Below, piece by piece: positions 6,931 through 13,309 of a stretch of 64,000 nt of DNA. Source of the stretch: Spizellomyces punctatus DAOM BR117 (taxonomy: Eukaryota). The position numbers and the translations under genes were made by a program. The notes beneath the pieces were generated by a model. That model did no database searches, was not told the origin of the DNA, and was given only the letters and a program-made list of their open reading frames with translations. Position 1 is the first letter of the stretch; every line of letters starts with the position of its first letter. The stretch is from NCBI GenBank assembly GCA_000182565.2, contig KQ257457.1; one strand, 5' to 3'.

Positions 6931-7535
6931 CAAGTCATGGATACAGTGCTTGTGAGCATGATAAACACGATAATGTCATGAGGAAAGAGAGCTGGTGGAC
7001 TGCAGCAGCAGGGGATATTTGGGCCGGATCATCGCCCATTGGTTCCGCCGTGCTTATCCTCCCCTAGATGCATTACCAATACCAAACAGATTGAACCAGG
7101 ATCATATGCCCGCTCTAACATGTAATACGAATGCGAGGATAACATCATCAGGGTTAGTCCATCCAAGAAAGGACAAGGAAGATCAACGAGAGAGTCACTC
7201 CATGGCAAAGTAAAGTACCATACGGCCATCCCCTCAAACGTTTCTTTACAAAGACTTGCGTGTTTATGAGCGACATGCGAAAACGCACCCCATGTCGGAT
7301 TGCTATCACATAAAAAAGTTATGTTTCTCATTGAAATGGACACACTTGACCACAAGGACGACACGAGGGCCATGGCCATAGCAACAAAAACAACGATCGT
7401 CTTGACCCGATCAAATTACAGTCCATCCGAATGCATTCATCGGCTTACGTGATCACTCTCCACCTCCAGTTTGCGATCACAGTATCTCTGACATATAGTT
7501 CCATTTTATAAAGCAGAGTAGCATTGCCACAATGA
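6931..7535 (+). repeat. Direct repeat, left copy (~600 bp)
   Basis: Runs from CAAGTCATGG to GCCACAATGA. It shares long identical stretches with 12736-13309 (e.g. GTGGACTGCAGCAGCAGGGGATA.TTGGGCCGGATCATCGCCCATTGGTTCCGCCGTGCTTATCC), with scattered substitutions and indels. Confidence 0.95.
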
Positions 7536-7776
7536 GTGGAAGCAAGTTCTATGCGGGAGAGGGTGCCTTTTTATAACTTTTTGAGGGGGGCCCCGTTGGC
7601 ATGTGAATGATGTGAGATGGTGTGGTGTGTAATAGTTGATAAATCCAAATATGGTCTCATTATGTAAGTCTGAATCGGACACAGAATTGCAGTCCGCCTT
7701 GTTGGCGTCACGAAATCTCTATAAAAGCGCGTCCATCGCTGCGCTTCTCCCTCTGTCTTCATCGCGTTCATCTAAA

Positions 7777-10098
7777 ATGGATGTCTCGACCCGCTTCCCG
7801 CTCACACAACTGAGCACTTTTCTGGACGATCCCAATTGCTCCTGGAAGGAGTATGTTAATGAAGTACACCGCGCAAAATCCGTATTGCTGGCGGAATTAG
7901 AGAGCATAGAGGACAAGGAAACCCGAAAGCTCTATCGGGAGGCAATCAACGACTTAAACAGCAGAAAGGCAAGTATACTAGCTAGCTCCATTAGGTTTCG
8001 ATGATTGCGCATTTGTAAATGCGGGGAGGATACCTTGCTCATGGCCCATGGGTCAGGGTCCCCCTGGCGAGGTGGCACTGATGGCCCATCGGTCCTGCGC
8101 TCGTCCGGTTACTGGCCCATCCCCGCGGGGGAATGCTGCTAGGTAGCTATCGTCGGAATCTGCATTGTGCTTTGGAGGTTTGGGAGGATACTTTGCTCAT
8201 GCCCATGGGTCAGGGTCCCCCTGGCGAGGTGGCACTGATGGCCCATCGGTCCTGCACTCGTCCGGTTACTGAGCCCATCCCCGCGGGGGATGCTGCTAGG
8301 TGCCCTAGTGAGAAACCTTCCAAAGTCCAATGTGTCGCTACTATCTGTCCGCAAACCCGATATCTTACACCACCTTTCTGCTCACTCACCATAGACCCGC
8401 GATGGTTTCAGCGAGTATATGGAGATTAAAAACAACAAGCGCCTTGTCCTAGAGTCGCACTTGAAGGTCGCAACAGTCACGGCCGCTCATGATACGATTG
8501 TCGAGAGAGTTATGAGAAAGCGAAAAGCGGACTCTACAGGCCTGCCTCCACCAAAGCGAACTTGCTCCTCTCCGGGAGAGATCTTTGACTCCTATCGGGA
8601 GAGTGGAGATACGGTTGAGATTGGCTCCTATGAGGCGAGTGGAGATACGGCTGAGATTGGCTCCTACGAGGAGAGTGGAGATACGGTTGCCTCTCAGGGA
8701 GAAATCGCCTACGACCTTCAGCCGCCAGAACATAATGAAGGATTTGACTCCTATCAGGAGAGTGGAGAGTTTGGCCCGATTGTCACGAGAATAAAGGAAT
8801 TGCGCTCCTCCGGCTCACCCGGTGCTTTGAGGTCAGTCGATACCACATCCATTCTCGTGTATTTTCGACATTGCCTAATTCTATTCGTCCTTAGTACTCT
8901 TTTTTGGAGCGTGGTTGACTTGCGGACGCAAGAATATCCGGATTTCCCACTCCCTATGAACGAACGCGGGTGCACACTCCTTACCGGAGAAACAATTACA
9001 AAGTTGAATGAGCATTTCCAGTCCATCATGCTCGATGCTCAAGAGAAGCTTTCAACTTCCGTTGTCTCGTTATTCGAGGTCTTGCGCTCTTTAGTGCAAT
9101 ATGACCGATCCGAGTATAGTATAGCCAAGCTTTCTAACGTGCTCCATCGCGGAGGAATATGTGCACTGAAGTTGCTTTTCTCTGATAAGTTGGAGGGGAT
9201 GGAGAGGTTGTGGAGAGATCAAGGTAGTGAAGATGAGCTGCAGTCAGTGGAAGAGACCCTTGCCGCCTGTCAGGCGATCGATCCAGATGATTCAATGACG
9301 AAGTGGGTCTGTCGGAAATTTTACGACGCCGAGGATATGCTTCTGATGCCCTCTGACCCCACTGAGAGAACGATTGACGCATATTGTATCCTGCCATTTT
9401 CGAAGCTACCGGTTGTGAGCCTACGGTACGGTGAAGGCGCCTGTAAGGCGGATGCAGAGGATAAGAAGAGGAGAAACTCCGAGTCGAAAGGGAAACATGT
9501 AGATTTTAATCACTTTCTTGGTGGCAAAGAAGTTGGAACGGGCGAGAATGCTGGTGTTAAGCCCACGCAAGACAAAAAAGATATGGATTTTGTAGCGGGT
9601 GTCAAGTGCTCGGTAGCATTGATTCGCTCCTACAAGCAGAGGATTGTAAGCTCCTGTAAGGAGAATGGGATCGATGCACCCCAAGATATCATCGAAGACT
9701 TGCAAAATCTAGCTGTCCCGTTTTACCATGTCCAAGGCACCGTCTGCATGTTCTTCCTAGTGTTCGCCATTGGGAATGAGTTGTATGGTTTGAAGGAATG
9801 GGATTTTGTTGACTTCGGTTCGATGGGTGAATCCGTGGACGTAATCTTGGATATGGCGTGGAACTTCCTTTGCGTACAAGCATTGCATCAAAGCTTCGAA
9901 GCCTCACGTCGATACATCACCTTGAAGGTGGATAAGATCATTGGTCGACAGAAATCCCAAAAACTTAGGACGATATGGACAATCGGCTCCCGAGGACGAG
10001 GCCGGCACTTAAGTCAACCATTGCGGCGGAGGTCCTGGACTGCTGCATCGGTCCCTATCCCTGGCCATACCCCTAAGAAAGGGCTCGGAAAAATATGA
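7777..10098 (+). CDS. Crinkler-associated-type restriction-endonuclease-fold (PD-(D/E)XK-like) protein
   Basis: Exon 7777-7968 joins 8395 onward in phase 0 through a GC-AG intron (AAG|gcaagt ... ccatag|ACC). A probable 63 bp in-frame intron lies at 8832-8894. C-terminal motifs PTERTIDAYCILPF, YGEGACKA..RRN, GKHVDF and EVGTGENAG resemble the REase-like family expanded in early-diverging fungi. Confidence 0.65.
8024..8301. repeat. Two tandem copies of a ~120 bp GC-rich self-complementary unit inside an intron
   Basis: 8024-8144 and 8182-8301 are nearly identical (GGGAGGATAC..GCTGCTAGGT), with a 158 bp period. Confidence 0.95.
8588..8692 (+). repeat. Coding minisatellite, 3 x 36 bp (SYxxSGDTxEIG)
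   Basis: CTCCTAxxxGGxGAGTGGAGATACGGxTGAGATTGG is repeated three times (last copy partial). Confidence 0.9.
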
Positions 10099-12505: not shown

Positions 12506-12735
12506 ACTAGATTCTCGTGCTGATGGACCTTGTCTCCTTTTAGGAGTTCCGCTACCCTTGCATTTTTTTTTTTTCTCCTTTAAGGAGTGCGTTCTATGAA
12601 AATTGTATAAATATGTATTTGCTGGGGTGAAGTACTGTAAAATATACCCCCTATAGGGAGTTATCCTCTATGACACCTATCCAAGGTTTTTGCATTCCAG
12701 TCCTGCAGTATTTATGCCACCACCATTCATGTTCC

Positions 12736-13309
12736 CAAGTCATGGCTACAGTGCTTGTGCATGACAAACATGCCATGTTATGACGTGGACTGCAGCAGCA
12801 GGGGATACTTGGGCCGGATCATCGCCCATTGGTTCCGCCGTGCTTATCCTCCCCTAGATGCATTACCAATACCAAGGGAGACCAGGATCATATGCCCGCT
12901 CTAACTAATACCAATGCAAGGATAACATCATCAGGGTTAGTCCATCCAAGAAAGAACAAGGAACAGCAAGATCAACGAGAGAGTCACTCCATGGCAAAGT
13001 AAAGTACCATACAGCCATCCCCTCAAATGTTTCTTTACAAAGACTTGCGTGTTTATGAGCGACATGCGAAAACGCACACCATGTCGGATTGCTATCACAT
13101 AAAAAAGTTACGTTTCTCATTGAAATAGGACGACACGAGGGCCATGGCCATAGCAACAAAAACAATGACCCGATCAAATTAGAGTCCATTCGAATGCATT
13201 TATCGACTTACGTGATCACCATCATCCCAGCTGCACATACAGTCCACTGAGCACAATATCTCTGACATATGGTTCCATTTTATAAAGCAGAGTACCACTG
13301 CCACAATGA
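12736..13309 (+). repeat. Direct repeat, right copy
   Basis: Paralogous to 6931-7535, same orientation. Confidence 0.95.

Follow-up and report, generated by a model that had tools for sequence, protein, structure and literature searches.

A locus-restricted palindrome shared by a nuclease-fold gene and a G-patch gene between two direct repeats in Spizellomyces punctatus

Introduction

Do two genes that stand between direct repeats travel as a unit, or are they residents of their chromosome that happen to be bracketed by a duplication? The question is raised by a locus of the saprotrophic chytrid Spizellomyces punctatus DAOM BR117, in which two copies of a ~600-bp direct repeat enclose gene 1, coding for a protein with the fold of restriction endonucleases (REase), and gene 2, coding for a G-patch protein. 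The locus lies on contig KQ257457.1 (assembly GCA_000182565.2), of which a stretch of 64,000 nucleotides was analysed, referred to here as the window. An initial annotation had described the arrangement as a candidate selfish element or toxin-antidote module that might move or loop out by recombination between the repeats, with the nuclease as mobiliser or toxin and the second gene as its partner.

Our analysis leads to a different reading, which we hold with about even confidence: a resident, co-regulated pair of nuclear chytrid genes with an incidental local duplication and no demonstrable mobile element. The unexpected part of the locus is an array of a 13-nt palindrome, which is kept against codon choice in three reading frames and occurs about twenty times in the two adjacent genes.

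Results

A palindrome confined to two adjacent genes

The palindrome CTCCT-NNN-AGGAG (in letters CTCCTNNNAGGAG; motif-bearing form CTCCTATAAGGAG) has constant arms and a free, AT-rich spacer, with the centres of the half-sites 8 bp apart. The pattern CTCCTNNNNGGAG gave 35 strand matches in the window, all of them in 7839-12587, compared to 0.51 expected. Perfect palindromes of the 5+3+5 geometry number 16, the next commonest stem of this geometry being a T-run with five. When one mismatch was allowed, 21 of the 22 matches in the window fell inside the same interval (1.53 expected). The sites are distributed over the exons and the 3' untranslated region (UTR) of gene 1, a 74-nt tandem repeat, the coding sequence of gene 2 and the 3' region of gene 2 (Table 1). 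Most of the sites have flanks that do not resemble each other. Local tandem repetition accounts for some of the copies (36-nt units in gene 1, 74-nt units ahead of gene 2, a pair of 52-nt units within gene 2), and at least 13 sites are independent. The 36-nt repeat, located at 8585-8689, forms the acidic linker of gene 1, and each unit bears the palindrome.

Within the coding regions the sites are read in all three frames, as S-Y-K-E, L-L-K-G-D and P-P-I-R-S. Shuffling of synonymous codons never reached the observed count (0 of 1000 shuffles per gene and pattern; means of 0.12-0.37 compared to 4-7 observed). As these shuffles preserve the proteins, the constraint acts on nucleotides. All 21 sites lie in the inferred mature mRNA, and none was found in 489 nt of introns, the gene 1 promoter, the spacer at 10350-10890 or the repeats. 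This bias towards exons and UTRs has a P of ~0.002; more conservative counts, which keep the independent sites alone or drop the uncertain 5' UTR of gene 2, give 0.02-0.025.

The palindrome is thus common to both mature mRNAs, which argues that the two genes form a functional pair. The partnership of the two genes proposed in the initial annotation gains support to this extent, as a functional unit joined by a palindrome that both genes have in common and that is restricted to the locus. The restriction to exons and UTRs, together with the G-patch of gene 2, points to RNA as the level at which the motif would act. The constant arms, the free AT-rich spacer and the 8-bp spacing of the half-sites point to a dimeric DNA-binding protein, for example an REase homodimer.

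Peptides compatible with the motif number five in gene 1, six in gene 2 and six in the gene 2 homologue of S. palustris (g08162, 66% identical to gene 2). In the latter they occupy conserved positions, including SYKE within an otherwise diverged low-complexity region. Each of 51 other members of the gene 1 family has none or one, both S. punctatus paralogues of gene 1 have none, and none was found in six proteins encoded by panE, the right-hand neighbour. The palindrome is a property of the gene pair and not of the nuclease family, nor of the genome as far as the 64-kb window shows. For gene 2, the conserved peptides suggest that it probably predates the species split.

A scan of 2.9 million viral contigs for paired motifs returned 12 loci, which we read as chance level; a viral signature was not seen. 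In literature searches with the motif strings, the papers listed were unrelated by title, and we could match the palindrome to no described system. Searches on S. punctatus, ChIP-seq (chromatin immunoprecipitation, ChIP, with sequencing) and motifs returned nothing on the palindrome by title or abstract.

Table 1 Coordinates of the features of the locus and its immediate neighbours. Positions are those of the 64-kb window.
Feature	Position	Strand	Description
Open frame, 846 codons	3610..6150	-	left neighbour; no Pfam domain; Ser/Arg/Pro-rich, probably disordered
Left repeat copy (R-left)	6916..7535		non-coding, nearly untranscribed; between the 846-codon minus-strand frame (3610-6150) and the gene 1 promoter
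Gene 1 (SPPG_05127), 610 aa	7777..10098	+	exons 7777-7968, 8395-8831 and 8895-10098; protein P0003 mapped by tblastn
Palindrome array CTCCT-NNN-AGGAG	7839..12587		16 perfect sites; 21 with one mismatch allowed
REase (PD-(D/E)XK) fold domain, predicted	9298..9900	+	gene 1 residues ~345-545
74-nt tandem repeat, 2 copies	10861..11004	+	upstream of the gene 2 ATG (TRF); one palindrome site per copy
Gene 2, 493 aa	11024..12505	+	single exon; P0004, 100% identical over 11024-12502
G-patch of gene 2	12107..12223	+	residues ~362-400
Right repeat copy (R-right)	12721..13309		inside the 3' part of the minus-strand ketopantoate-reductase transcript
Intron	13466..13530	-	65 nt, beyond the panE stop codon; its removal connects the panE 3' region with the R-right-bearing exon
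Ketopantoate reductase gene panE (PanE/ApbA)	13638..14678	-	right-hand neighbour; PF02558, E 8.4e-29

Gene 1 is expressed and belongs to an unnamed fungal family

Read evidence was taken from public runs, namely X1 (labelled 'DNA?', which behaves as a transcript assembly), X18 (RNA), and X19 and X20 (ChIP DNA). Gene 1 codes for a protein with 95-100% identity to the uncharacterized protein SPPG_05127 of S. punctatus DAOM BR117. Its two introns comprise 426 nt (7969-8394, GC..AG) and 63 nt (8832-8894, GT..AG). An X1 contig of 2,287 nt covers 7817-10443 with both introns removed, and X18 RNA reads with A-run ends at 10342 and 10347 place the poly(A) site near 10342-10347. Gene 1 is therefore an ordinary expressed, intron-bearing gene. 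The depth of transcript-assembly contigs, a poor measure, was 122.7 for gene 1 and 4-8 for gene 2. The first intron is unusually long for the locus and contains a near-tandem duplication (8024-8144 and 8182-8301, 96% identity), which is free of the palindrome.

Pfam gave no match to gene 1 at E <= 1, and any one Pfam family was found in at most one of 33 relatives at E <= 0.01. An exhaustive HMMER search of 1.84 billion representatives identified 50 representative relatives at E <= 0.001, 28 of them at <= 1e-10. The taxonomic spread, taken from 30 named representatives of the 50, includes Spizellomycetales (Powellomyces, Phlyctochytrium, Geranomyces, Borealophlyctis, Gaertneriomyces and Fimicolochytrium), Nowakowskiella, Endogonales (Endogone and Jimgerdemannia) and Glomeromycotina (Rhizophagus, Gigaspora, Diversispora, Entrophospora and Paraglomus). 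Among these 30, S. punctatus itself contributes two other paralogues, SPPG_07619 and SPPG_02152, which are encoded on different scaffolds and are 39% and 37% identical to gene 1. Such low identity indicates that the three paralogues seen are old. A metagenome scan with the gene 1 domain returned ~590-600 pattern stretches, none of which was confirmed by tblastn.

The best-scoring relative, P0006 of Powellomyces hirtus (1234 aa), matches gene 1 in four stretches and may contain two copies of the domain or represent a fused gene model. A chromo domain (E 8.6e-12) was found in P0099 of Geranomyces variabilis (713 aa), which shares a 90% cluster with P0051, a member of the family. This match raises the possibility that some nucleases of the family are directed to chromatin.

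Structure prediction assigns gene 1 to the restriction endonuclease fold

The family alignment contains the block TERTxD ... LRYG(D/E)GxSxADxxDKxxRxS...GKxVD(F/Y) ... ExGxGENSG ... (D/N)FxxxIKxAxAQxR, in which E367, K400, R403, D413, E422, E427, N428 and K447 are at least 90% conserved. AlphaFold2 with this alignment reached a predicted local distance difference test score (pLDDT) above 90 for residues 190-570, and of 95.1 for residues 330-575 folded alone. VIA-align matched the domain model to the N-terminal nuclease domains of DrdV (7lo5_A, Z 10.6, root mean square deviation 2.8 over 135 residues), BpuSI (3s1s_A, Z 9.4) and HsdR (3h1t_A, Z 8.5), and 20 of the 30 best rows were nucleases or REase-like by title. 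Lower matches included EcoRI, Bse634I, NgoMIV, Cfr10I, SgrAI, NucC, BsoBI, BsaWI, BbvCI, MunI and others. Two mitoribosomal chains also scored Z 9.2 and 8.6; these we take to be mitoribosomal proteins with an REase fold. A Foldseek search with the domain alone placed DrdV chains in its four best rows (probability 0.93-0.99, E 0.012-0.044). With the whole protein, Foldseek found nothing at E <= 0.001, so that the fold emerged only from the domain folded alone, and a PDB sequence-profile search with the family gave no meaningful match. Structural neighbours in the Atlas include clusters bearing HSDR_N and PDDEXK_12 domains.

Based on these models, a PD-(D/E)XK core with the order alpha-beta-beta-beta-alpha-beta is well supported for gene 1, and structure prediction, which had been proposed as a check, bears out the fold suggested initially. 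In the model, D413 lies on strand 411-418 and E422 and E427 lie on strand 421-428; all three are nearly invariant in 33-34 sequences. A (D/E)xK triplet is absent, as the residue two positions past E427 is not a lysine (E-N-A/S), and an invariant K447 follows in the next helix. The modelled catalytic constellation is plausible but not canonical. Gene 1 belongs to an unnamed family of early-diverging fungi with an REase fold that is predicted with structural confidence.

The initial link of this protein to Crinkler-associated proteins is not supported. The Crinkler header PF20147 is absent from gene 1 (Pfam, E <= 1) and from all 33 family members scanned (E <= 0.01). One neighbouring Atlas cluster, in which 17% of the members carry a Crinkler domain, aligned with a TM score of 0.43-0.47 and is only a lead. 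A literature search joining Crinkler, REase and Spizellomyces found nothing.

Gene 2 carries a partial G-patch

Gene 2 comprises a conserved N-terminal domain, a Ser-rich repeat region, the G-patch and a conserved acidic C-terminal domain. A 75-nt tandem repeat at 11608-11758 lies in the Ser-rich region. The G-patch named in the initial annotation was recovered by Pfam above the gathering score (PF01585, 24.1 bits compared to a cut-off of 22), with the match covering positions 3-20 of the 45 in the profile; the S. palustris homologue, with 21.9 bits, stays slightly under this cut-off. A profile of both proteins matched the G-patch of SUGP1 (8ejm_B, E 3.4e-4, 37 positions). A full G-patch has about 45 residues and six conserved glycines. 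In gene 2 the glycines of the second half are replaced, with T/K and A/V at positions where SUGP1 has glycines. By these alignments, gene 2, a G-patch protein specific to its lineage, appears to carry a genuine but partial G-patch with a degenerate second half.

Both species keep the N- and C-terminal domains, which matched no known family. An Atlas search with gene 2 yielded no usable neighbours (pLDDT of the Atlas model 0.35), and a metagenome scan returned ~590-600 pattern stretches, none confirmed by tblastn. A prediction of the complex between gene 1 residues 185-575 and gene 2 scored 0.00, in a run made without alignments and with an uncertain fold of gene 2, and speaks neither for nor against an interaction. 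A literature search joining G-patch and REase found nothing. The 74-nt tandem repeat upstream of the gene is probably its 5' UTR or promoter, and X19 shows a ChIP peak at 10872-11125.

The direct repeat consists of two diverged, non-coding copies

The ~600-bp direct repeats were confirmed. A repeat search linked the two copies, at 6916-7535 and 12721-13309, by seven co-linear blocks 5763-5805 nt apart, and in a blastn alignment of 6931-7535 and 12736-13309, 84.1% of the 622 columns were identical when gaps are counted. MAFFT alignment of the two copies (620 and 589 nt) gave 529 matches in 572 ungapped columns, i.e. 92.5% identity and a Kimura two-parameter distance (K2P) of 0.080. The copies differ by ten gap runs (2, 1, 12, 4, 3, 6, 17, 9, 10 and 1 nt), most of which are not multiples of three. 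No third copy was found by blastn within the window. The two minus-strand open reading frames (ORFs) inside the repeat, at 7029-7415 and 12905-13207, were rejected as genes on account of frame-shifting indels and of Pfam searches without a credible match. Between the copies, the interior of ~5.2 kb holds the two plus-strand genes, gene 1 in three exons and gene 2 in one, in line with the original description.

Read by eye, the alignment gives the repeat ends as CACATTTCG... and ...CCACAATGA, with flanks that do not match between the copies. The likeness stops abruptly on the right at ...CCACAATGA and fades on the left over ~15-35 nt. The alignment contains neither TG..CA ends nor a target-site duplication (TSD), and reading of the sequence by eye revealed no primer-binding site and no polypurine tract. 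Inverted repeats of at least 30 nt are absent from 5000-16000, and hence no terminal inverted repeat (TIR) was seen. Pfam (E <= 1) detected no reverse transcriptase, RNase H, integrase or transposase domain in six ORFs (the two gene products and four regional ORFs, two of them inside the repeat). The absence of these hallmarks had already been noted and stands. An Rfam scan of 5500-15000 gave two matches far under the gathering scores (mir-3149, 29 compared to 100 bits; C0719, 20 compared to 50 bits), which were taken as chance. A foreign origin by composition was considered and rejected, since the GC content and the GC content at third codon positions (GC3) of both genes fall inside the range of the adjoining genes.

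Transcription differs between the two copies. R-left showed an RNA depth of 0-0.6 and a transcript-contig depth of 0 over 6808-7315. R-right is covered by an X1 contig (record 5, 2,034 nt) that spans 12591-13465 and 13531-13900 with zero differing letters. Its joint at 13465/13531, supported by this contig and four X18 RNA reads, reads CT..AC on the plus strand and therefore GT..AG on the minus strand. This spliced contig places R-right wholly in the 3' part of the panE transcript or in an overlapping transcript. The panE product is the annotated 327-aa 2-dehydropantoate 2-reductase P0055 of S. punctatus (100% identical), with its stop at ~13638. R-right would be the 3' UTR/terminator region of panE, and R-left lies upstream of gene 1.

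To estimate copy number, raw ChIP DNA reads were admitted from a likeness of 85%. In both X19 and X20, the bins of the repeat were no deeper than the single-copy flanks; in X20 the bin sums were ~6-7 for R-left compared to 2.5-10.6 alongside, and 6-25 for R-right compared to 22-47 alongside. Reads fitting two places of the stretch (402 of 8,225 in X19 and 40 of 4,998 in X20) are as expected for two copies. A repeat family of tens of copies would stand out in ChIP depth, which is a crude measure of copy number, and none does.

Mobility or loop-out through the repeats is consequently not supported: the window holds two copies, reads do not pile up, R-right is part of the panE transcript, the copies have diverged by 7.5% and ten indels, and the gene 1 paralogues are old. 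As there is no sign of a moving unit and R-right is working DNA of the neighbouring gene, we read the repeat as a local low-copy duplication.

Other features of the window

Two assembly gaps occur in the window as runs of N, at 2343-2813 (471 nt) and 33889-34056 (168 nt). A tRNA scan found no tRNA close to the locus; the sole tRNA in the window is a tRNA-Ser(TGA) at 613-695 on the minus strand. An ordinary gene with an F-box and WD40 repeats lies at 58069-60093 on the minus strand.

Discussion

A resident gene pair and the points that weigh against it

In the reading that we favour, the ~600-bp repeats would be a low-copy local segmental duplication of non-coding DNA that brackets the pair by accident of position. 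The palindrome would act in cis in both genes, as an RNA hairpin or as the binding site of a dimeric protein, and the pair would be jointly controlled through it, possibly by the pair's own products in an autoregulatory loop.

Several observations do not sit easily with this picture. The motif-rich domain closely coincides with the interior bounded by the repeats, a coincidence that an accidental duplication does not predict. The exon bias rests on the inferred 5' UTR of gene 2. An RNA hairpin would be weak if its stem has 5 bp and its loop 3 nt, and an interrupted palindrome of the 5+3+5 type is a geometry recognised by homodimeric type II restriction enzymes; by this analogy, the palindrome might serve as a site in DNA that gene 1 targets, and not as an RNA element with a regulatory role. 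The copy count covers the 64-kb window, and ChIP depth is a coarse guide to copy number. Finally, in S. palustris the gene 2 homologue lies on a contig of 37,413 bp and the panE orthologue (87% identity) on one of 162,539 bp, and no gene 1 relative was found there by a word search for an orthologue of 311-993 aa or among the 30 named representatives. The pair may therefore have arrived at its present site in the S. punctatus lineage, a possibility that the contig split and the missing gene 1 relative keep open. The gene 2 and panE clusters were each seen on one contig only, and judged from these sequences the two genes are probably not neighbours in S. palustris, unless a contig break lies between them. 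The initial annotation had named synteny of the pair in relatives as an observation that would speak against a mobile unit; the different contigs argue against strict synteny, although the distance between the two species makes this weak evidence.

Could the unit have been mobile?

The possibility that the locus is an excisable or once-mobile cassette takes up these last observations. A 5.8-kb unit (one repeat copy, gene 1 and gene 2) would have entered between the 846-codon gene and panE, either by recombination at the repeat, in the manner of a Campbell-type integration of a circle, or as a composite flanked by repeat copies, and it could loop out between them. We consider this unlikely. In its favour, the repeats bracket exactly two genes and contain the motif domain (7839-12587) between them, S. 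palustris has panE and the gene 2 homologue on separate contigs and no gene 1 orthologue among the sequences searched, and the divergence of the repeats (K2P 0.08) looks much younger than the species split (87% protein identity for panE, 66% for gene 2). However, no recombinase, TSD or terminal motifs were found, and the two copies in the window attract no excess of reads. No read joint suggests a circle or a deletion, with reads of 38-60 nt that are too short to span the repeat. Moreover, R-right works as part of the panE transcript, the composition of the unit is that of the neighbouring genes, and loss of synteny between rather distant species is common.

A possible module that recognises its own sequence

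The nuclease and the G-patch protein might instead form a self-recognising module, with the ~20 palindromes in both genes as the target of their own products, a reading to which we assign a low probability. G-patch proteins recruit and activate DEAH-box RNA helicases. At the level of RNA, the hairpins could be cut or remodelled by the nuclease together with a DEAH helicase activated by the G-patch, which would make the genes an autoregulated RNA-surveillance pair. At the level of DNA, cleavage of the sites and the flanking repeats could let the unit excise, convert or spread. If this reading were true, the locus would represent a kind of eukaryotic genetic unit that bears the sequence it recognises along its whole length.

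A possible patchwork of small duplications

Comparably low is the probability we give to the repeat having no relation to the genes, either as what is left of a larger tandem duplication or as one of several independent, low-copy dispersed segments of 200-600 bp in this region with copies elsewhere. After a tandem duplication, more paralogous sequence should remain next to the repeat, and none was seen. Clustered differing letters in DNA and RNA reads and in transcript contigs indicate that other loci resemble 10198-10600, 11001-11039 and 12359-12735, and sharp loose read ends occur at 10227, 10446, 12453, 12574, 12645 and 12735. One likeness ends at 12735, the edge of R-right; its 30-nt continuation past this position has no match in the window (up to three mismatches). 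In the favoured reading too, these near-copies of short segments elsewhere fit a patchwork of small segmental duplications. Against dispersed segments, no clusters of variant reads occurred inside the repeat among the rows listed. Some near-copies are more highly expressed than the present locus. A few X18 and X20 reads join ~10790 to ~12611 on opposite strands (10790-10792 and 12609-12611, side 23-24 nt), and this joint may represent another locus with similar motif-bearing modules in inverted arrangement.

Does the nuclease cut its own locus?

A homodimer of gene 1 could recognise CTCCT-NNN-AGGAG in the DNA of its own locus. The outcome would be recombination, gene conversion or single-strand annealing between the repeats, which would make a pop-out cassette, or silencing or insulation. 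The predicted REase fold with E367, D413, E422, E427 and K447 invariant in the family suggests an active enzyme, the interrupted palindrome with half-site centres 8 bp apart resembles sites of the BglI or EcoNI type, and within the 64-kb window the motif is confined to the nuclease-encoding locus and flanked by direct repeats. One family member has a chromo domain as a fusion partner, which also suggests chromatin or DNA. Nevertheless, we regard this explanation as quite improbable. Other family members, including the two S. punctatus paralogues, lack motif-compatible peptides, so that the motif is not a family trait, and the S. palustris gene 2 homologue keeps such peptides though no gene 1 orthologue was found there. 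Every site falls in an exon or a UTR, and the introns and the promoter are free of them, which fits RNA better than DNA. Why evolution would favour a protein that cuts its own locus is obscure.

A toxin-antidote module or another selfish pair, with a nuclease toxin that the G-patch protein neutralises or directs, is very improbable: a nuclease-fold protein does stand beside a co-oriented, rapidly evolving partner (66% identity between the species for gene 2 compared to 87% for panE), both genes have a cis motif in common, and a review describes REase domains as the toxic module of many CR C-termini in Crinkler effectors (PMC5289972), but there is no sign of drive, copy-number gain or toxicity, gene 1 is well represented in the transcript assembly (122.7 compared to 4-8 for gene 2, on that poor measure), unlike an unneutralised toxin, and its product has no Crinkler header and, by eye, no recognisable secretion signal at the N-terminus of P0003. 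To our knowledge, G-patch proteins act as helicase cofactors and not as nuclease inhibitors, which also counts against such a module.

Significance

That mobility of the cassette is unsupported matters chiefly as a correction of the earlier idea. Of wider interest is that gene 1 defines an unnamed family, predicted to have an REase fold, with 50 representatives across chytrids, Glomeromycotina and Endogonales. If the palindrome is the recognition element of a nuclease or of a helicase cofactor, it would provide a testable handle on this orphan nuclease family of early-diverging fungi. S. punctatus is transformable.

Comparison with known systems

Two direct repeats of ~0.6 kb around an interior of ~5.2 kb recall non-autonomous long terminal repeat (LTR) elements of the large retrotransposon derivative (LARD) or terminal-repeat retrotransposon in miniature (TRIM) type. 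Unlike these, the present locus has no TG..CA ends, TSD, primer-binding site, polypurine tract, gag or pol, its copy number is low, and its interior consists of two ordinary host-type genes with their own promoters. A class II (TIR) DNA transposon is equally at odds with the locus, in which neither an inverted repeat of at least 30 nt (5000-16000) nor a transposase domain was found.

With the nuclease domains of DrdV, BpuSI and HsdR, which are restriction enzymes of type IIL/IIG and type I, the predicted structure of gene 1 shares the PD-(D/E)XK core and conserved acidic residues on strands 2 and 3. Sequence similarity to them is undetectable (Pfam at E <= 1 and PDB profile), and gene 1 is, in contrast, a eukaryotic, stand-alone, intron-bearing gene without a methyltransferase or helicase module, whose product has a helical domain at the N-terminus and a linker of acidic repeats. 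In Crinkler effectors, too, chytrid and Glomeromycotina proteins carry domains of the REase fold, and the gene 1 family has members in Rhizophagus, Gigaspora and Diversispora, but gene 1 has neither the Crinkler/ubiquitin-like header nor an NTPase or kinase partner domain. Gene 2 resembles the DEAH cofactors SUGP1 and S. pombe C1486.03, its 'MGWKEGEGL ... K.P.N' aligning to the G-patch of SUGP1; it differs from cofactors of the SUGP1 type in its flanking domains, which belong to no known family.

The palindrome array itself has possible parallels in the dense arrays of interrupted palindromes to which a dimeric protein binds, such as the E2 sites of papillomaviruses (ACCN6GGT) and the family of repeats of Epstein-Barr virus (EBV), and in the autoregulatory stem-loops that Regnase-1 and E. 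coli rnc have in their own mRNAs. The likeness lies in a short palindromic motif whose arms stay constant around a free spacer, which recurs many times whatever the reading frame and is linked to the locus of an enzyme that acts on nucleic acids. Unlike all of these, the present array lies in two chromosomal fungal genes and occupies only their exons and UTRs.

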